The position numbers and the translations under genes are program-made. A DNA stretch of 20,000 nucleotides from Chiloscyllium plagiosum. Taxonomy: Eukaryota. The stretch covers positions 10,285,500 to 10,305,499 of the forward strand of contig NC_057749.1 in NCBI RefSeq assembly GCF_004010195.1. The letters are read 5' to 3'. This document shows, one piece after another, positions 1 through 16,569 of the stretch; the first letter of the stretch is position 1, and every line of letters starts with the position of its first letter. The notes beneath the pieces are model-generated. The model was not told the DNA's origin. It ran no database searches and was given only the letters and a program-made list of their open reading frames with translations.

Positions 1-225
1 TTAGTGAAGTTAGATCACATGGGATTCAGGGAGAGGTTGCCAATTGGAGATAAAGTTAGCTTAATGATAGAGGGTTGTTTTTCAGACTGGAGGCCTGTGA
101 CCAACAGTGTTCTGCAGGGATCAGTGCTGGGTTTACTTTTGTTTGTAATTTACATAAACAATTTGGGATGAGAAGTTAGTATGTATGGTTAGTAAGTTTG
201 TGGATGATACCAAACTTGGAGGTAT

Positions 226-458
226 TCAAGATTCACAAATTCAATCAATAAGCACATCGACCTGGACCCAATATACCGACCACTGCAACAGACAGCTGGA
301 ACTGACACCCGGAAGCGGCAGATTCAAACCACTATAAATGCCGGAGGAAACAACACCGAAACGTTTCACAGGAGGCTCCCAAGCACTGAGGATGTCACCT
401 AGACAGGGGACGAAACGTCTGCAACACAAATTCCCAGCTCGGCGAACAGAACCACAAC
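226..458 (+). mobile_element. Penelope-like element 3' terminal fragment with 13-bp TSD
   Basis: TSD aacttggaggtat at 213-225 and 459-471. Frame 226-402 encodes ...NSINKHIDLDPIYRPL..., resembling the C-terminus of PLE GIY-YIG proteins. Contains a hammerhead motif. Confidence 0.8.
383..422 (+). ncRNA. Minimal type I hammerhead ribozyme motif
   Basis: gca-CUGAGGA-u-GUC(A)CCU-agac-AGG(G)GAC-GAAA-cg-UC|ugc. Intact core, stem II, palindromic stem III (ACGU) and a 3-bp stem I. Predicted cleavage after C419. Confidence 0.72.
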
Positions 459-1396
459 AACTTGGAGGTATAGTTGACAATGAAGAAGATTATCTGAGGC
501 CTTGATTAATTGAGCCAATGGGCTGAGGAGTGGCAGATGGAGTTGGATTTGGACAAATGTGAGGCATTGCATTTTGGTAAAACAAACGAGGGCAGGACAT
601 ATACAGTTAATGGTAGGGCCCTGGATAATGTTGTAAAATAGTGACCTTGGAGTTCAGGTACACAGTTCTTTGAAAGTTGCATCATAGGTAGACAGGGTAG
701 TTAAGAAAGACCATTTAGCATGCATGCCTTCATTGCTCAGACCACTGAGTGTAGGATTGGGAAGTCATGCTAAGGCTGTATAGGGATTGGTGAGATCACT
801 TCTGGAGCACTGTGTCCAGTTCTGGTCGCATTGCTATAGGAGGGATATTATAAAGCTGGAGAGGGTTCAGAAAAGACTGACCAGGATGTTGCTGGGACTG
901 GAAGAGTTGACTTATAAGGATAGGCTGGGAGTTTTTTCACTGGAGTGCAGGAGGTTGAAGGGTGACCTTACAAAGCTTTATAGAATTATGAGGGGCACAG
1001 ATAAGGTGACTAGCAAATGTCTTTTCCTGAGGGTGGGTGAGTTCAAAAGTAGGGGGGGGGGGGCATATTTGAAGGTAGAGAAGAAAGATTTAAAGGGACT
1101 TGAGGGGCAACTTTTTCACATGGTGGGTGGTTCATGTGTGGAATCAACTGCCAGAGGAAGTGGTAGATGCAGGTACAGTTACAACATTTAAAAAACATTT
1201 GGACATGTACATGAATAAGAAAGGTTTAGATGGCCAAATGGAGGCAATTGGGACTGGTTTAGTTTGGGAAACTGGTCGGCATGGATGAATTGGACGAAAG
1301 GGTCTGTTTCCATGCTGTATGTCTCTATGACTAACCTCTCACAAGGTAACTAAACTGGTTAGAGTGTTACTGAGAAACCTAACATCTTAACATCGT

Positions 1397-2445: not shown

Positions 2446-2676
2446 AAAAATCACACAACACCAGGTCATAGTCCAACAGGTTTAATTGGAAGCACACTAG
2501 CTTTCGGAGCGACCCTCTTTCATCAGGTGAGTGTCAATACTTCACAATCACATGATGAAGGAGCGTCGCTCCGAAAGCTAGTGTGCTTCCAATTAAACCT
2601 GTTGGACTATGACCTGGTGTGATGTGATTTTTAACTTTGTACACCCCAGTCCAACACCGGCATCTCCGAATCATGA
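2446..2676. mobile_element. Palindromic non-autonomous PLE derivative with 12-bp TSD
   Basis: Inverted arms ~2445-2534 and ~2544-2633, then a ~43-bp unpaired tail. TSD ctgttcagagat at 2434-2445 and 2677-2688. The arm is near-identical to 8803-8887, and each arm has a hammerhead-like motif. Confidence 0.88.
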
Positions 2677-2885
2677 CTGTTCAGAGATGTTATTGTACAC
2701 CTCTGGAGTAGGTATGACCTTAATACAGGTTACCTAGTCTAGAATTAGGGACACAACCACTGCATCACAGAACCTTCAAGGGTATAATTGTATTCTGGTG
2801 CAAATTCTCTGCAAGGAAATAGAATAAACAAAAACTCCAGTGAGCCTCTGGCAATTGTTGAATGAAGGTACCAATTCTGTTCTAG

Positions 2886-3052
2886 ATTTTGGAAATGCAG
2901 CAGCCAATGAAAGCCCATTCATCATGGCAGAGAGCGTCATTTGGTTCCGCTATCACAATTACCTGGCTTCTCAGTTTGAAGCTCAGAACTCCTCATGGTC
3001 GGATGAAGATATATTCCAGCACGCCAGAAAGTGGGTGATTGCCTCGTTCCAG
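2886..3052 (+). CDS. DUOX: Dual oxidase coding exon (peroxidase-homology domain), 167 bp, phase 1->0
   Basis: ttctag|AT TTT GGA...TTC CAG|gtaatt. Translates (D)FGNAAANESPFIMAESVIWFRYHNYLASQFEAQNSSWSDEDIFQHARKWVIASFQ, matching the DUOX motif WFRYHN...W.DEELFQHARKRVIATYQ. DUOX1 vs DUOX2 is not resolvable here. Confidence 0.96.
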
Positions 3053-3124
3053 GTAATTTGGTGAAAACACAAATTTACAATCAATGCTATATATAAACCA
3101 CACTGTTAACATCAGCCTTTGTTT

Positions 3125-3954: not shown

Positions 3955-4245
3955 TACTGACTCGAGTGCAGTGCCGAAGGAGTGTTGTACTGTTAACAGT
4001 TCATCTAATAGATGACTCATTGAACTGTTTATCTAACTCTTGGTTTGGACAGATGTAAAATATCAGCACATGGAGAATTCCCTAGCACACTGCTGCCATT
4101 AACCTCTCAACAAAAACAATGAAAATAGATTATTTGATCATTTATCTCATTATTATATTATTTATGGGATCTTACAATGGGCTCCCATGTTTCTTACATC
4201 ATAGCAGTAACAATGCTCCAAAAGCCTGCATTTTGTCTTTAAAGT
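3955..4245 (+). mobile_element. Degraded Deu-domain SINE (SacSINE1/AmnSINE1-like)
   Basis: Diverged matches to the recalled Deu-SINE body: agtgcagtgccgaaggagtgttgtactgt, gatgtaaaa, agattatttgatcatttatctcatt, tgggatctt. Boundaries approximate. Confidence 0.55.
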
Positions 4246-4261
4246 CCCTTTCTTAAAATAA

Positions 4262-4452
4262 ATGTTTCTTCCATGGAATGTGGGTGTCGCTGGCAGGGCC
4301 AACATTATTGCCCACCTCTAATTACCCTGCAGGGGGTGCTGGTGAGCTGCCTTCTTGAACTGCTTGGTCCATGCGGTGTAGAGAGACCCACAATGCTTTT
4401 AGGGAGGGAATTCCAGGATTTCAATCCAATCTCAGTGAAGGAATGGCGATAT
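4262..4452 (-). mobile_element. 3' end of a second LINE family (same as 4460-5165), inverted
   Basis: Reverse complement aligns with 4968-5165 (aaatcctggaattccctccc, ggcagctcacca, gccagcgacacccacat). Confidence 0.8.
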
Positions 4453-4459
4453 AGTTTTT

Positions 4460-5165
4460 AGCTTGGGCTGACAAGTTGGCAAGTATCATTCGAGTCGCTC
4501 AAGTACAAGAGAGAATCTAACCATCACTCCTTGACATTCATTGACATCACCATCACTGAATCCCCCACGACCGACAACCTGGGGGTTATCATTGACCAGA
4601 AACTGAACTGGATTAACTGTAGAAATACCAAAGCTACAAGAGCAGGTCAGAGGCTAGGAATCCTGCAGCGTGTAACTCACCTTCTGACTCCCAAAAGCCT
4701 GTATACCATCCACATAGCACAAGCAAGTGAGAGGATAGAATATTCCCCATTGAGCTGGATGGGTGCAGCTCAAACAACATTCAAGAGGCTTGACACCATC
4801 CAGCCCACCTCATTGGTGCATGAACATTCACTCCTTGCAGCACCGATGCTCAAGAGCAGCAAAGATCCTGAGAAAGCAGCTTCCAAATCTCTGACAATCC
4901 GACTAGAAGGACAAGGGCAGTAGATACGCCTACATGATTCCCTCCATTCACCATCCTACTTGGAAATATATCACTGTTCCTTCATTGTCACTGGGTCAAA
5001 ATCCTGGAATTCCCTCCCCAAAGGCACTGTGAGTCTACCTACAGCACATGGATAGCAGCGGTCCAAGAAGGGGCAGCTCACCACCACCTTCTCAAGGGCA
5101 ACTAGGGATGGGCAATCTCTGCTGGTACAGCCAGCGACACCCACATCCTGTGAATGAATTTTTAG
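4460..5165 (+). mobile_element. LINE 3' fragment (CR1/L2 group, family distinct from HER1-like copies)
   Basis: ORF 4531-4923 contains LGVIIDQKLNW...KATRAGQRLGILQRVTHLL...EYSPLSW, typical of non-LTR RT C-termini. Ends in tail agggcaactagggatgggcaat...catcctgtgaatgaatttt. Confidence 0.85.
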
Positions 5166-5334
5166 ACAAAGCCACTGTGGTGTGTGATCTGGAGGGAACT
5201 CGCAGGGCGTACTGTTCCATCCTCCAGTTGAACAGGGAAGTGCATTCGGTATGTTCTGCCCTCACTGAGGTTCCTTTTGACATCTGATTGGGTCATCATC
5301 CCACTCCCAGGATCTGGTTAACATGATCTGATTT

Positions 5335-5612
5335 GAATTTGGTTTGCTTTATTGTTGTCACACGCACCCAAGTACAGTGAAAAGCTTTGTTTTGCAAGCA
5401 GTACACGCAGATCATAGCAGACAAGGATGTGCAGATAATAGGGTGCCTAGACAGAGGGAAGCAGACAGGTTACACTGGACAGGAGGCGTGCAAAACAAAA
5501 TCAACATTATTTGAAGTTAGAGAGGTTCATTCAGCAGTCTGATCAAAGCAGGGAAGAAGCTGTTCTTGAACCTGTTGGGTACATGTGTTTAGGTTTCTAT
5601 ACCTTCTTCTCT
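5335..5612 (-). mobile_element. Rex1/Babar-like LINE 3' end
   Basis: Minus strand of gggaagaagctgttcttgaacctg reads RFKNSFFP, characteristic of Rex1-type ORF ends. Followed by a 3' UTR with aataaa. Confidence 0.6.
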
Positions 5613-5691
5613 ACAAGCTTTTATATCATAGTTTCAGCAAGTCATCTTTTTACTGATGTCTGGAAGTTTTTTTAATTTCGGTTCATTACAG

Positions 5692-5782
5692 AAACAGGAC
5701 TTGTGCATTCCGTAATGTCACCACCATCGACAACAGGGGGTCTCCTGCACTTCGAGTGTGCAACAACTTCTGGAGAAGACAG
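5692..5782 (+). CDS. DUOX: DUOX coding exon, 91 bp, phase 2->0
   Basis: cattacag|A AAC AGG ACT TGT...AGA AGA CAG|gtacag. Translates (R)NRTCAFRNVTTIDNRGSPALRVCNNFWRRQ; cf. DUOX NASCHFR...ALRVCNNYW with the conserved Cys pair. Confidence 0.95.
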
Positions 5783-5904
5783 GTACAGAATTCAAATAGT
5801 CAAACTCCTAAGCTCATATGCAGTAATGGACTAGGAATGGTGGAGGCAATTGTAATTCTCAACAGCTTTTCTATGCCTCTACTCTTTGATGGCAAAATAT
5901 GATG

Positions 5905-6200
5905 CAAGGACACCATGGCAGACTTTTATAAAACACCAGTTTGATCTCAACTAGAGTATCGTGTCCATTTCTGGGCACTGGATATTCGAGAAAGAGAGAG
6001 AGAGAGCAGCCATGGTTTTAATGTGAGTAATTCCAAGGATCAGGGAGTAAGATTATGAGGATAGTAGAGGGTGCCCCCCTTTTGAGAAGATTGAGAAGAT
6101 ATGTAATACAAAACATGGAAGCATTGTAAACTGTGAGGGGGATGGTGTAGAACTCCAAAGGACATAGACAAGTTGGTGGAGTAGGCAAGTTAGTGTCATG
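5905..6200 (+). mobile_element. Degraded CR1 LINE fragments
   Basis: ctttataaaacaccagtttgatctcaactagagtatcgtgtccatttctgggca (LY..L.RPQLEYCVHFW-like) and gacatagacaagttggtggagtaggca. Confidence 0.55.
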
Positions 6201-6303
6201 TTAGTAGGGAGAGCGTGGACAGAGAGTCCAAATAGGGGGCAATATGATCAGTATGTTCATTCCTAAGTATTTGTGGAATTTGTTAATCTTCAGCTGGGGA
6301 GTT

Positions 6304-6810
6304 GGGAGGTGATAGCCTAGTTGTATTATCACTAGACTATTCATCCAGAGACCTTGGTAATGTCCTGGGGAGAAGAATCCTGAAAGAACTGCAGATGACA
6401 GAAATCAGATACAAAACAGAAGTTGCTAGAAAAGCTGAGCAGGTGTGGCAGCATCTGTGGAAACAAAGCAGAGTTAACATTTCAGGTCCAGTGACCCTTC
6501 AAATTTTCAAGAAACTCTGACTCAAATCTGCCATGGCAGATGGTGGAATTTGAATTCAATTAAAAAAAAATATCTGGGGTTAAGGATCTAATGATGACCA
6601 TGAAGCCATTGCTGATTGTCAAAAAACCCCATGTCTTCACTAATACCCTTCAGGGAAGGAAATCTGCCATCCTTACTTGGTCTGGCCTCCATGTGACTCC
6701 AGCCCCAGAGCAATTTGGTTGACTCTCACCTGCCCCTCTGGGAAGTTAGGGTGGGTAATAAATACTGCCCTGGCCAGCAACATCCACTCCCTGCAAATGA
6801 ATTTGTAAAA
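6304..6810 (+). mobile_element. tRNA-head SINE (non-HE1) carrying the tail of the 4460-5165 LINE family; interrupted at ~6372-6513
   Basis: Degenerate A-box-like head (tagcctagttg), body atggcagatggtggaatttgaattcaat...agggaaggaaatctgccatcc, tail agggtgggtaataaatactgccctggccagcaacatccac. A second, inverted copy lies at ~17800-18455. Confidence 0.7.
6372..6513. mobile_element. Half of a PLE-derived palindromic repeat (family of 13521-13749)
   Basis: ctgcagatgacagaaatcagatacaaaacagaagttgctagaaaagctgagcaggtgtggcagcatctgtg...gttaacatttcaggtcc aligns to 13530-13635. Confidence 0.7.
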
Positions 6811-6829
6811 ATCTAAAGTAATGCGCAGT

Positions 6830-7705
6830 TGTGGGCTCCCCATTCCAGCACGGACATGATTGCTTTGAAGAGAGTGCAGGATAGATTTTGCAAAATTAGT
6901 TCCCAGGATAAGTAACTTCTGTTGTGAAGACAGATTGAAGGATTTGAGACTGTTCTCCTTCAGGAGGAGCAGGCTAACAGGAGATTTGATAGATGTTTTC
7001 AAAGTCATGGGGTTTCTGGATAGAATGGATGGGGAGAGATTGTTCCTGCTCATGAATGAGAAGGCAGACCTTTAAAGTGTTTCACAAGCGCAGCAAATGT
7101 GTTGTGACGAAAATCTTTTTTTAACTCAGCGAGTAATTCGGGTCTGGATCCTCTGCCTGAACGTGTGGTGGAGGCAGATTTAGTTGAGGCATTCAAGAGG
7201 TCATCGATTGATTATTTAATTAGAGACCTTGCCCAAGAGTCCAGGGAAAAGGCAGGAGAATGGCATTTCATCATTCTGCCCAATGGTTTGCTGGTGTAGA
7301 TGCATTTGGCCAATGGCCTCATTTTGTGCTGTGATTGATAGAGCTCTTCAAATCAAGAGAAGCCTGGACAGAGTGTACATTGAAAGATTGTTGCTGGTGG
7401 CGGAAAGTTCCGGAACCCAAGGGCGCTGGTTTAAAGTGATTGACAACAGAACCAGAGATGACATGATGAAACTGTTTTACATGGCAAGTGGAGAGAATCT
7501 GGAATGTTCTGTTTGAGACTGCGGTAGAAGTTGACTTAGTTGTGGCTTTCTAAAGGAAATTGAATAATTATCTATAAGGAGAAAATTGGCGAAGCCATGG
7601 GGGTAAAGATAGGGGAGTGAGATTCACCAAATCATTTTCGCAGAGAGCTGGCATGGATGGGATGGGTTAAATGGCCTTCTTCTGAGTTAGGTCTATTCTG
7701 TGGTT
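6830..7705 (+). mobile_element. Two adjacent degraded CR1 LINE 3' fragments (~6830-7340 and ~7350-7705)
   Basis: ttgaagagagtgcaggatagattt, ggagatttgatagatgttttcaaagtcatg, gtggtggaggcag, and two 3' tails (aatggcctcattttgtgctgtga; aatggccttcttctgag). Confidence 0.7.
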
Positions 7706-8002
7706 GAACAGTGCTCCTGTCACTTACCTTGCTGGTCCTGATGCACTTCACCAAGTGATTGTGTCGCTGGTACATAGGTCATTGTTAAATGTGGCTATCT
7801 GCTTTCAGCAGGTCTTTATAGCCTTTCCGTGTCCTGTTTTCGTATTTTGGGGAGCAAGATTTTCAAACTGAAACTTAATAAAGACTTACGAACTGTCGTC
7901 AGTGATACAACCTGTGTTGGACACAGCCCAATCCCCAAACAGAAGAAGTGTGTCTTCGGTCTTTTAAAAAGAATGTCAGAACCATCCTCTCCGACAGTTG
8001 AA

Positions 8003-8080
8003 CAAGGACAAGTAGGGATGGGCAATAAATGCTGGCCTTGCCAGGGACGCCCACATCCTGTGAATAGATATTTTAAAAAT
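8003..8080 (+). mobile_element. Isolated LINE/SINE 3' tail (family of 5095-5165)
   Basis: aggacaagtagggatgggcaataaatgctggccttgccagggacgcccacatcctgtgaat. Confidence 0.7.
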
Positions 8081-8144
8081 TGCAAGATATTGCTCAACCA
8101 TGAACATTACTTTAGTCAGGCACAAAAACATTCAATGACATAAT

Positions 8145-8268
8145 TGAGGGACAGGTGCCAATTGTTGACAAATGGGACTAGGTTAATTTAGGATATCTGG
8201 TTGGCATGGACGAGTTGGACTGAAGGGTCTGCTTCCGTGCTGTCCAGCTCTGTGATGCTATGACTCTA
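8145..8268 (+). mobile_element. CR1/HER1-like 3' tail fragment
   Basis: aaatgggactaggttaatttaggatatctggttggcatggacgagttggactgaagggtctgcttccgtgctgt matches the tails at ~1245-1332 and ~11790-11890. Confidence 0.8.
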
Positions 8269-8383
8269 AATGAATGATATAAATTTTAATCCTTAGAAGA
8301 TGCTCTCTGCCTTTTCAACAGGTTTTTGTTGAAGTTGTAAAGAGTGCAGAAGGTTGGAAGGTTAATTGAGTTTTTTCTTTCAG

Positions 8384-8486
8384 AAGGCAAATCTTCAAAC
8401 CGGAACTGATATGGAGGAGCTGATTTTTGGGATGGCATCTCAAATCGCTGAGAAAGCAGACAATATTATTGTGGAAGATCTCAGAG
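8384..8486 (+). CDS. DUOX: DUOX coding exon, 103 bp, phase 0->1
   Basis: ttttttctttcag|AAG GCA AAT...CTC AGA G|gtgatc. Translates KANLQTGTDMEELIFGMASQIAEKADNIIVEDLR(D); cf. DUOX LLLGMASQI.E.EDNIVVEDLRD. Confidence 0.96.
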
Positions 8487-8852
8487 GTGATCTGTTTATT
8501 GAGTGTTTTTGTTTACCAAATTCTTTCAAGACAATCCAGTGATAGTCAGTGAGAGATTCTGGGTCAGCCATTGTAATGGAAAGGAACTGCAATTGTACCA
8601 TCAGTATTCAAACCTCTGGACTGCAACATGCGTGTAAAAGTGTATGTTGCCATAACGACTTGAATCCCTGATTGGATTACAGCACACCTCATCAACATTG
8701 CAACAGTGCCATAAATCTAACGGGCAATTATTAAGAACTAATTATAAAATGAATTAGGACATTGTTTTTCTTTCAACAGAACTCATTATATGTGGTTAGA
8801 GTTAAAAATCGCACAACACCAGGTTATAGTCCAACAGGTGTAATTGGAAGCA

Positions 8853-8887
8853 CACTAGCTTTCGGAGCGTCACTCCTTCATCAGGTG
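8853..8887 (-). ncRNA. Minimal type I hammerhead ribozyme motif in the PLE terminal repeat
   Basis: Minus strand reads cac-CUGAUGA-a-GGAGU-gac-GCUCC-GAAA-gc-UA|gug. Intact core, 5-bp stem II (one G-U pair), palindromic stem III (AGCU). Confidence 0.72.
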
Positions 8888-9035
8888 GTAGTGGAGGGCT
8901 CAATCCTAACACACAGAATTTATAGCAAAAATTTACAGTGTGATATAACTGAAATTATACATTGGAAAATTGATTGTCTGTTAAGCCTTTCATCTGTTAG
9001 AATACCGTGATAGTTTCACTTCTTTCATGTGTAAA

Positions 9036-9550
9036 NNNNNNNNNNNNNNNNNNNNNNNNNNNNNNNNNNNNNNNNNNNNNNNNNNNNNNNNNNNNNNNNN
9101 NNNNNNNNNNNNNNNNNNNNNNNNNNNNNNNNNNNNNNNNNNNNNNNNNNNNNNNNNNNNNNNNNNNNNNNNNNNNNNNNNNNNNNNNNNNNNNNNNNNN
9201 NNNNNNNNNNNNNNNNNNNNNNNNNNNNNNNNNNNNNNNNNNNNNNNNNNNNNNNNNNNNNNNNNNNNNNNNNNNNNNNNNNNNNNNNNNNNNNNNNNNN
9301 NNNNNNNNNNNNNNNNNNNNNNNNNNNNNNNNNNNNNNNNNNNNNNNNNNNNNNNNNNNNNNNNNNNNNNNNNNNNNNNNNNNNNNNNNNNNNNNNNNNN
9401 NNNNNNNNNNNNNNNNNNNNNNNNNNNNNNNNNNNNNNNNNNNNNNNNNNNNNNNNNNNNNNNNNNNNNNNNNNNNNNNNNNNNNNNNNNNNNNNNNNNN
9501 NNNNNNNNNNNNNNNNNNNNNNNNNNNNNNNNNNNNNNNNNNNNNNNNNN
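9036..9550. other. Assembly gap (515 N)
   Basis: Run of n directly visible. Confidence 1.
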
Positions 9551-10917: not shown

Positions 10918-11889
10918 CTTTTTCATCAATTATATAAAAGATTTGGATGGGAACATAGGAGCTATAGTTAGTAAGTTTGCAGATGACATCAAAGTTGGAG
11001 ATGTAGTGGACAGCGAAGAGGGTTACCTCAGATTACAATGGGGATCTTGATCAGATGGGCCAATGGGCTTAGGAGTGGCAGATGGAGTTTAATTCAGATA
11101 AATGTGAGGTGCTGCATTTTGGAAAAGCAAATCAGGGCAGGACTTATACACTTAATGGTAAGGTCCTGGGGAGTGTTGCTGAACAAAGAGACCTTTGGAT
11201 GCAAGTTCATAGTTCCTTGAAAGTAGAGTTGCAGGTTGACAGGATTGTGAAGAAAGTGTTTGGTATGCTTGCCTTTATTAGTCATTTAATTGAGTATAGG
11301 AGTTGGGAGGTCATGTTGAGGCTGTGCAGGACATTGGTTAGACCACTTTTGGAATACTGTGTGCAGTTCTGGTCTCCTTGCTGTAGAAAGGATGTTGTGA
11401 AACTTGAAACGGTTCAAAAAAGATATACAGGAATGTTGCTAGGTTTGGAGGGCTTGTGCTATAGCGAGAGGCTGAATAGACTGAGGCTATTTTCTCTGGA
11501 GCATTGGAGACTGAGGGGTGACCTTGTAGAGGTTTATAAGACCTTGAGGGGTATGGATAGGGTAAATAAACAAGGTCTTTTCCCTGGGGTGGGAGAGTCC
11601 AAAATTCGAGAGCAGAGGTTTAAGGTGAGAGGAGAAAGATTTAAGAGGGACATAAGGGGCAATATTTTCATGCAGAGGGTGATGTTGTATGGAATGAGCT
11701 GCCAGAGGAAGTGGTGGAGGCTGGTACAATTGCAACATTTAAAAGGCATCTGGATGGGATAGGAAGGGTTTGGAGAGATATGGGCCAAATACTGGCAAAT
11801 GAAATTAGATTAATTTAGGATATCTGTTTGACATGGACAAGTCAGATCGAAGGGTCTGTTTCCATGCTGTACAACTGTATGACTCCAAT
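10918..11889 (+). mobile_element. CR1 (HER1-like) LINE 3' fragment, RT C-terminal part
   Basis: YIKDLD...SKFADDIKVG (RT catalytic FADD). ORF 11082-11762 reads FNSDKCEVLHFG...LVRPLLEYCVQFWSP...RLRGDLVEVYK. 3' tail gggtctgtttccatgctgtacaactgtatgact. Confidence 0.93.
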
Positions 11890-12686: not shown

Positions 12687-13032
12687 GGGTGGTGTGATGG
12701 CTCAGTGGTTAGCACTGCTCCACACAGCGCTAGGGACCTGGGTTCAATTCCACTCTCAGGCGACTGTCTGTGTGGGGCTTGTACATTCTCCCCATGTCTG
12801 TGTGGGTTTCCTCTCGGTGCTCTGGTTTCCTCCCACAGTCTGAAGATGTGCAGGTTAGGATGGATTGGCCATGCTAAATTGCCTATGGTGTCCAGGGATG
12901 TGTGGGTTAGGTGGATTGGCCATGGGAAATATAGGAGAATAGCATTTGGAGAGTGGGTCTGAGTGGGGTGCTCTTCGGAGGGTTGGTGTGGACTCAGTGG
13001 GCCGAATGGCCTGGTTCCATACTATAAGACTG
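12687..13032 (+). mobile_element. HE1-type SINE, older subfamily (CpG-decayed)
   Basis: tggctcagtggttagcactgct, gggttcaattcc, V-domain core, and a duplicated ggttagg(a/g)tggattggccatg block. Confidence 0.88.
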
Positions 13033-13132
13033 TGAACAGAAAGAGAGTTATCTAAAACCCACAATCAACAATGTAATGTCGAGTAATTTTCAGAAACAAT
13101 GGTTTATTAACAAATTGTGCAACTGTGTTCAG

Positions 13133-13520: not shown

Positions 13521-13749
13521 AAAACTGAAAGGACTGCAGATGCTGTAAATCAGAAACCAAAACAGGAGTTGCAGGAAAAGCTCAGCAGGTCTGGCAGCGT
13601 CTGTGAAGAGAAATCAGTGTGAACATTTCGGGTCAGCGGAGTTCTGATGAAGGGCCAGCAGACCTGAAACGTTAACTCTGATTTCTCTTCATAGATGCTG
13701 CCAGACCCCTGCTGAGCTTTTCCAACAACCCCTTTTTTGTTTATGTCCT
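13521..13749. mobile_element. Palindromic PLE-derived element with hammerhead motif
   Basis: Inverted arms ~13558-13634 and ~13661-13738. Probable TSD cc(a/t)ataaaga at 13511-13520 and 13747-13756. Confidence 0.8.
13637..13680 (+). ncRNA. Minimal type I hammerhead ribozyme motif (stem II partly mismatched)
   Basis: cggaguu-CUGAUGA-a-GGGCC-agca-GACCU-GAAA-cg-UU|aacucug. 7-bp stem I and intact core at 13644-13650 and 13666-13669. Predicted cleavage after U13673. Confidence 0.65.
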
Positions 13750-14000: not shown

Positions 14001-14178
14001 ACTGGTGTAGGCTTAGTGTAGATTTGGTGATACAGACTCAGTGGGCCGAAAAGCCTTTTCTGTGTTGTATATTTCTATGTGGCTTGTTGTAAGATTATTT
14101 TTGATAACATCTTTGTACTTTGGGATAATTCTACTCTGTTAAAGGTGCTATGTAAATGCAAGCTGTTCTGTGCAGAGT

Positions 14179-14369
14179 CAAAAAGTGTGGTGCTGGAAAA
14201 GCACAGCCAGTCAGGCAGCATCTGAGGAGCAGGGCAGTCAACGTTTTGGACATAAATTAGGTCTCGCACATCGACTCTCCTGCTCCTCAGATGCTGCCTG
14301 ACTGGCTGTGCTTTTCCAACACCACACGGTTTGACTCTGATCTCCAGCAGCTGCAGTCATCACTTTCTC
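14179..14369. mobile_element. Palindromic PLE-derived element, central hammerhead region degraded
   Basis: Inverted arms ~14173-14237 and ~14270-14339, plus a ~30-bp tail. TSD-like ctgttctgtgcagagt 14163-14178 / ctgctctgggcagagt 14370-14385 (2 mismatches). Confidence 0.75.
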
Positions 14370-15341: not shown

Positions 15342-15992
15342 AAGAAGAACATCAGAAACAGGAGCAGGAGTAGGCCATCTGGCCCCCCCTCCAGCCTGCT
15401 CCACCATTCAATAAGATTGTGGCTGATCTTTTCATGACCTCAGCTCCACTTACCTGCCCGCTTACCATATCCCTTAGTTCCTTTACTGTTCAAAAATCTA
15501 TCTTTGTCTGAAAAATTAAACGAGCTAGCCTCAACTGGGCAGGGAATTCCACAGATTCACAACCCTTTGGGTGAAGAGGTTCCTCCTTAACTCAGTCCTA
15601 AATCTGCGCCCCCTTATTTTGAGGCTATGCCCCCTAGTTCTAGTATCACCTGCCAGTGTTTCAACCTCCCTGCCTCTACCTTATCTATTCCTTTCATAAT
15701 TTTAAGTTTCTATAAATTCGTCCCCAANACCCCCCCCCCCGGCATTCTTCCAAATTCCAATGGGTATAGTCCCAGTCTATGCAGTCTCTCCTCATAAGTC
15801 AACCCTCTGAACTCCAGAATCAACCTAGTGAACCTCCTCTGCAACCCCAGTGCATCCTTTCCCAAAGAAGCCCACAACTGCACGCAGCACTCCAGGTGTG
15901 GCCTCACCAGCTGCAACATAACCTCCTTAAACTCCATCCCTCTAGCAATGAAAGACAATATTCCATTTGCCTTCTTAATTACAGCCTGTGTT
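15342..15992 (-). mobile_element. CR1 LINE 3' fragment
   Basis: Minus ORF reads IKKANGILSFIARGMEFKEVMLQLVRPHLECCVQLWA...QRRFTRLI...YEERLHRLGLYPLEF. Tail agatggcctactcctgctcctgtttct. Confidence 0.88.
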
Positions 15993-16160: not shown

Positions 16161-16456
16161 GGGGCGGCACAGTGGCTCTGTGGTTAGCACTGCTGCCTCA
16201 CAGTACCAGGGACCCAGGTTCGATTCCAGCCTCTGTCTGTGTAGCATTTGCACATTCTCCCCGTGTTTGCGTGGGAGAATGGCTTTCCTCCCACAGTCCA
16301 AAGATGTGCAGGTCAGGTGAATTGGCCATTCAAAATTGCCCATAGTGTTAGGTACATTAGTCAGAGAGAAATGGGTCTTGGTGGGTTACTCTTCAGACGA
16401 TCGGTGTGGACTTGTTGGGCCGAAGGGCCTGTTTCCACACTGTAGGGAATCTAATC
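16161..16456 (+). mobile_element. HE1 SINE
   Basis: ggggcggcacagtggctctgtggttagcactgctgcctcac...gggcctgtttccacactgtagggaatctaatc. Confidence 0.9.
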
Positions 16457-16569
16457 AAAACATGGATGCCTCTCCTTTGTGTCACTGTCCAATTTCACCC
16501 CATAAACTCTCCCATTGCTTACTGGAATGAGTGATCCACAGGACTCACAATGTGAATCTATCCAGTTTG

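Follow-up and report, generated by a model that had tools for sequence, protein, structure and literature searches.

A truncated Penelope-like insertion with a minimal hammerhead motif in an intron of a DUOX-like gene of Chiloscyllium plagiosum

We analysed a 20,000-nucleotide stretch of the Chiloscyllium plagiosum genome (hereafter, the window) in which a 233-bp insert carries a hammerhead ribozyme motif. Both the element, of which the insert is an unremarkable dead copy, and the motif that it carries belong to known kinds. We consider it highly probable that a dead-on-arrival, 5'-truncated copy of a Penelope-like element (PLE), whose tail hammerhead is inert at this place, is the whole explanation. 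The importance for the DUOX-like locus is small: many thousands of such fragments exist, and this one probably leaves the gene unaffected.

The insertion and the element family

The 13-base word aacttggaggtat occurs at 213-225 and again, without a mismatch, at 459-471, and between these duplicates lies the insert (226-458). A 13-bp perfect duplication around a 233-bp insert had been claimed in an earlier note on this DNA, whose description and inference proved right overall; both copies are present, and the length of the insert agrees with an unfilled site elsewhere in the window. The length of the duplication needs a qualification. The bases AAC at 459-461, which come first in the right duplicate, also agree with the element's own sequence, as seen in the family copies and in loose read ends at 459-462; the exact repeat of 13 bases stands, and the duplication is therefore 10 to 13 bases long.

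The sequence interrupted by the insert is a decayed LINE-like reverse-transcriptase repeat on the + strand, with its left part at 1-225 and its remainder at 472-1330, the latter aligning with 11000-11800. Directly ahead of the left duplicate, 197-208 encodes FVDD, as the earlier note had read. Self-comparison of the window revealed a second copy of this repeat at about 10940-11760, in which 163-221 is matched at 10942-11000 and 501-633 at 11046-11178 (repeat families D20 and D6). This paralogous copy carries the duplicated word once, at about 10990, with nothing inserted, and the offset difference between the two copies is 234, which equals 233 + 13 less a 12-base gap in the first copy. The exact duplication and the unfilled paralogous site together establish that the insertion and its target-site duplication are real. 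The nearest clusters to the 229-aa frame of the paralogous copy are named 'Reverse transcriptase family protein' (score 0.95), a general likeness to reverse transcriptases that leaves the CR1 of the earlier note a candidate assignment, and a Pfam profile search of the LINE-like fragments in the window found no domain. The insert was probably made by target-primed reverse transcription into an older LINE fragment, leaving the duplication of 10-13 bases; it retains the last ~56 codons of the element, its minimal hammerhead and 39 bases past the cut site. The target word CAAACTTGGA resembles the end of the family's long tail, CAAACTTTGA, in 9 of 10 bases; we treat this as chance, as four other short-end copies show no such target.

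Within the insert, the five bases at the 5' junction (226-230, +) are without counterpart in any family copy, and family matches begin at insert base 6. The rest, 231-458 (+), aligns with the 3' end of a PLE of the short-end type, lacking a tail extension of ~42 bases, and is 91.7% identical to the full unit at locus L047. Its first part, 231-402 (+), is a remnant of the last ~56 codons of the element's frame, with a TAG stop at 400-402, and residues 597-658 of L047 match it at 78% identity (tblastn). The stretch 423-458 (+) lies between the end of the hammerhead's stem I, at 422, and the short 3' end of the element, as placed by the family alignment.

A search of the insert against its own 3.56-Gb genome returned 1848 first-look candidates, of which 40 were scored, and the other scored copies are 92-96% identical to it over insert bases 6-233. 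At the protein level, the family returned 111,865 first-look candidates, and the 136 scored were all at 83-100% identity. When the loci were compared with one another, the 3' end was found to be common to all 29 other loci, and the 5' ends stop stepwise, up to ~900 bases or more upstream. One shared 3' end with a staircase of 5' ends identifies a retrotransposon copied from its 3' end. In longer copies, open frames run into the insert sequence (287 residues in L031, 658 in L047). The 658-aa frame scores against RVT_1 at E 8.3e-7 and 29.4 bits, just below the Pfam cut-off of 29.6, and among the nearest Atlas clusters of this protein, RVT_1 is found in 61-70% of members and GIY-YIG in 27% of one cluster. 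The sole Pfam match of its last 123 residues is GIY-YIG, the C-terminal domain of endonuclease-positive PLEs, and it is weak (E 0.067; 13.9 bits where 22.6 are required). For the C-terminal frame of L031 (287 aa), Pfam gave nothing at E up to 0.01, and a sequence search of solved structures with the C-terminal frame returned only chance-level rows; modelling those last 123 residues from the single sequence reached a mean pLDDT of 40, too poor for a fold search. The lengths of the longest apparent frames, those of L045, L046 and L080, were rejected as artefacts, for N runs of ~1.1-2.3 kb sit where the reverse transcriptase should be.

Partial tandems, adjacent inverted truncated partners and a tail of 30-40 bases are the signature of PLEs (PMC8557442, PMC11167929), and all three are present in this family. 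The unit at L047 is ~2.5 kb long; the 74 bases that close it, motif included, also stand at its head, and an inverted 738-base copy abuts this forward unit. A partner copy on the opposite strand, with 5' ends facing, is found at 18 of 29 loci (L002 and L003 being one place), and 12 of 16 displayed copies, a non-random choice from 30, have the ~42-base tail extension. The family alignment, the staircase of 5' ends, the L047 frame and the partial tandem layout thus bear out the claim of a Penelope tail, and sequence comparison supports the reading of the insert as the 5'-truncated 3' end of an abundant Penelope-like family, one that resembles PAc, the Poseidon element of Anolis carolinensis, in layout. 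A short non-autonomous element (a non-LTR retrozyme or a SINE) would suit the ~230-base size and the single hammerhead, and retrozymes are described as deriving from PLE terminal repeats (bioRxiv 10.64898/2026.07.22.740005). Against such an element stand the staircase of 5' ends extending 900 bases or more upstream, the continuity of the insert with the coding frame of the long copies and the absence of a tandem array within the window, and we give it hardly any credence.

The hammerhead motif and its codons

The motif at 383-422 (+) is a minimal type I hammerhead with a predicted cut between 419 and 420. Stem I (383-385/420-422) has 3 pairs only. The core consists of CUGAGGA (386-392), GAAA (412-415) and a cut-site base other than G, C419. 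An extra unpaired U393 stands between positions 9 and 10.1, and G394-C411 forms the pair G10.1-C11.1. Stem II (394-400/405-411) has 7 positions, one of them an A397/G408 mismatch, and is closed by a loop at 401-404. The palindrome A415 C416 G417 U418 (ACGU, positions 15.2-16.2), which C419 follows, replaces stem III. The earlier note had described an intact motif of the minimal type I class with a palindromic stem III. The class is right, for the published features of PLE hammerheads are all there, as are the core, stem II and the palindrome; the mismatch and the 3-pair stem I are corrections to "intact".

A descriptor built on those published features, and written after the motif had been seen, matches the 20-kb window at 386-419 (+) and at 8856-8884 (-). 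It has 0 matches in 3000 dinucleotide shuffles, and on this basis we reject a chance origin of the motif. The covariance-model check that the earlier note proposed came out the other way: the Rfam hammerhead models gave 0 matches at gathering over the 20 kb and, with the limit relaxed to E 10, none on stretches of 401 and 81 bases, so no such model scores the motif at any of these three scales. The second match, at 8856-8884 (-), is a minimal hammerhead of another type, with CUGAUGA, an extra A, a stem II of GGAG../..CUCC and GAAAGCUA. A decayed sibling of this CUGAUGA type occupies 2502-2526 (-), within an almost perfect hairpin whose 103-base arms are 2435-2537 and 2541-2643, and both motifs are antisense to the DUOX-like gene.

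Genome-wide, a pattern for the family's motif type has 14,476 matches versus 28 for a reversed control, and a sister pattern, which differs from it at position 7, has 13,272 versus 170. The copy count that had been proposed thus comes to at least 14,476, and the special interest that the earlier note implied for this motif falls away, as it is one of at least that many alike. A general minimal-hammerhead pattern, which includes other stem II sequences, has 209,335 matches, and its reversed control 1,057. Far fewer, 4,000-9,000, are given for coelacanth and Xenopus in PMC4209133, and this very large genomic load may be useful to PLE researchers. In the motif types that are commonest in the genome, stem II is 4 pairs long (GGGC/GCCC) and the sequence that follows is shared. 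Boxes resembling a hammerhead, and the downstream word (..GATGCTGCCTGAC..) common to these most abundant families, turn up again in other repeats of the window, at 13644-13669 (+), 6406-6461, 13552-13607 and 14173-14228, and do not pass the strict descriptor.

The motif also holds codons. The frame at 208-402 reads ..NSINKHIDLDPIYRPL..STEDVT*, the peptide that the earlier note had attributed to the insert. The family's frame ends in STEDVT, with its TAG at 400-402 in loop 2, and L031, L046 and L047 share this ending. At 392-394 (+), A9, the extra U and G10.1 form an ATG that opens the frame MSPRQGTKRLQHKF.., and in longer copies this frame continues into the element's N-terminal region. At L047, whose motif alone among 53 instances in the compared loci heads a long unit, the frame from the stem II ATG is open for 195 residues into the unit body, and its peptide is found also in L042 (76% over 195 residues) and L039 (85% over 139). 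These three loci suggest that the ATG is a start codon. The preceding and the next frame overlap by 11 bases within the motif, and the unit seems to lack any untranslated spacer and to code over its whole length. In the parent element, the hammerhead would thus be placed where the frame of one unit stops (TAG, loop 2) and that of the next starts (the putative ATG in stem II). The stop and start of successive unit frames inside the hammerhead make the motif part of the element's own RNA biology. In the accessible parts of the literature on PLE hammerheads, we found no description of a preceding frame that stops inside the same motif without a spacer, and a ribozyme in which one frame stops and the next starts may be of use to PLE researchers.

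How the motif varies among copies bears on what keeps it. In an alignment of 74 copies, the window copy carries the majority base at each column from 375 to 458, the motif included; its 8 departures from the majority all lie at 364 or earlier. Site by site, the 73 other copies vary by 4.4% in the coding remnant, compared with 2.4% for the motif and 2.2% for the tail; these figures may be biased, as copies entered the sample for their likeness to the window or to one protein. Variability in the motif is not below that of the tail, and the excess conservation of the hammerhead core that the earlier note named as a test was not found in these 73 copies. Stem covariation, its other comparative test, gave no better result. 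Copies within the family are too alike for it. In sister families, read by eye from the genome pattern listing, the outer and inner pairs of stem II are kept, and some have A-U at the middle position of stem II where the window family has A/G; the listed families show one-sided changes and a lost pair, and no clean compensatory change.

An alternative reading is that the family keeps a hammerhead-like sequence for non-catalytic reasons, namely the overlapping stop and start codons, or protein binding and priming, with the ribozyme likeness functionless. The TAG and ATG inside the motif speak for such retention, as does a motif variability equal to that of the tail. Insertion in vitro is reported to be unaffected by catalytic mutants (PMC11167929), and PLE clades free of hammerheads are described as proliferating well (PMC8557442). 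On the other side, every feature of the published descriptor is kept, other motif families with different stem II sequences number 209,335 matches versus 1,057 for the control, and a C3/G8 double mutant of the PAc hammerhead is reported to restore cleavage in part (PMC11167929). We regard purely non-catalytic retention as unlikely.

Host intron and cleavage of the window copy

The host gene is DUOX-like and lies on the + strand. On that strand, five frames align collinearly with the animal haem peroxidase profile, from its position 206 to 494, one of them below the cut-off, and the best solved relatives of these frames are Dual oxidase 1 chains. The first exon downstream of the insert lies at about 2870-3067, in an open frame at 2828-3061 (+) that matches An_peroxidase positions 206-268 at E 2.1e-19; the best solved match of this frame is Dual oxidase 1, at residues 212-275 or 227-290. 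A further peroxidase exon on the same strand, covering profile positions 143-196, lies ~0.5 kb before the window. With peroxidase exons on both sides, the insert is in an intron, between two peroxidase-domain exons, and in sense orientation, as the earlier note had supposed. At this locus, the motif would be copied into the DUOX-like pre-mRNA in the sense direction, and its intronic sense position means that, if transcribed, it would be in catalytic orientation.

Elsewhere on the contig, at 5693989-5724868 (-) and ~4.6 Mb away, is a second set of peroxidase exons that may represent a paralogous DUOX-like gene. The window contains 516 N, in one run that begins at 9036 and another that begins at 15728. 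A repeat whose head is tRNA-like (GGGCGGCACGGTGGC..GGTTCAATTCC) occurs three times, at 1397-1704, 12687-13041 and 16162-16459, and looks like a SINE family.

Single minimal hammerheads are reported to show no detectable cleavage in vitro, and dimers and trimers to cleave weakly (PMC4209133). The hammerhead of PAc is described as cutting only when the element's protein is present, and no RNA-seq ends are reported at its site (PMC11167929). In the window, we found no second copy of the PLE family and hence no partner in cis for a dimeric hammerhead. The earlier note had stated that no complementary arm sequesters the motif. This is correct in that the window has no inverted partner copy; it does not extend to the local sequence, where a GACG/CGUC hairpin competes. 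In the predicted fold of the monomer, GACG pairs with CGUC and GAAA is hidden; the hammerhead stems are predicted at -7.6 kcal/mol versus a minimum free energy of -11.8 kcal/mol, which corresponds to ~4% of the ensemble. The predicted dimer likewise takes the competing GACG/CGUC duplex and not the hammerhead fold.

Transcription of the family is visible in an RNA run (X21), in which 294 reads aligned to the element part at 90% likeness; a second run, X22, gave no aligned reads and carries no weight. First mates in X21 favour the minus strand over the plus strand by ~9 to 1, which under the convention customary for such libraries points to sense-strand RNA. The reads leave 474-490 uncovered, and the signal is that of family RNA rather than of the window locus; 72 reads extend beyond 461 into the body of the unit. 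Coverage stays level over the cut site (168.6 at 406-422, 171.9 at 423-439). Ends at 419/420, which the earlier note proposed to seek in shark RNA, are not seen among these family reads, nor do read starts or ends pile up anywhere along the stretch, in a single-cell polyA library that is poor at catching cleavage ends and poorly suited to 5'-OH ends. The cut-site base (419) is T in place of C (GUU for GUC) in about 1/4 to 1/3 of family reads and contigs, and both bases fit the rule for this position.

The motif might nevertheless cut the DUOX-like pre-mRNA at C419, acting in trans with family RNA as a dimeric hammerhead or with the aid of the element's protein. It equals the family majority at every core position, it is in sense orientation within the intron, and family RNA with its ~9 to 1 strand bias is present; the weak cleavage of dimers and trimers in vitro (PMC4209133) and the protein-assisted PAc hammerhead (PMC11167929) offer precedents. 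The flat depth across 419/420 and the lack of a pile of read ends, both from family reads of which none is specific to the locus, and the preference of the predicted dimer for the GACG/CGUC duplex argue against it, and we hold such cutting to be decidedly unlikely. Most likely, the window motif does not cut, or cuts very rarely, and would have no effect on the host gene, since it stands alone, has no stem III and is predicted to face a competing local hairpin. It is very improbable, in our estimate, that intronic minimal hammerheads in sense orientation could be cut when element protein or partner RNAs are abundant. If they were, bursts of PLE expression would nick many host pre-mRNAs, the DUOX-like one included, given that the genome has no fewer than 14,476 motifs of this type, besides more than 200,000 of related types.

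Comparison with known systems

A literature search for the window's PLE family in cartilaginous fish found no relevant paper. The closest known systems begin with the min-HHR; these minimal hammerheads of metazoan PLEs, as described by Cervera and de la Pena in 2014 (PMC4209133), have CUGANGA and GAAA boxes, an unpaired base between 9 and 10.1, a G10.1-C11.1 pair, a stem II of 6-8 pairs that is long beside the short stem I, and a palindromic 15.2-16.2 without stem III; they are placed in the element's repeated end, and many are dispersed single copies from truncated elements. The window motif is like them in all these respects. It differs in its stem I, with 3 pairs versus the 4-5 given for metazoan PLEs and the 2 given for Drosophila virilis in the same paper, and in the internal mismatch of its stem II. 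The hammerhead families of Rfam have the same catalytic core letters, whereas the window motif is without stem III and loop contacts and was matched by no model at any threshold tried.

The likeness to PAc, as described in PMC11167929, extends to a start codon at the start of stem II, with the cut site 25 bases after the ATG in the window motif versus 26 in PAc, to a tandem organisation, to a tail at the 3' end of insertions and to the lack of RNA-seq ends at the cut site. PAc is drawn there with non-coding terminal repeats, whereas in the window's family the preceding frame stops in loop 2, with an overlap of 11 bases. Animal non-LTR retrozymes, in the descriptions given in PMC7229834 and bioRxiv 10.64898/2026.07.22.740005, likewise have a type I hammerhead derived from PLE ends and depend on PLE machinery. 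They consist of short non-coding tandem units, whereas the insert in the window is a single truncated piece of a coding element.
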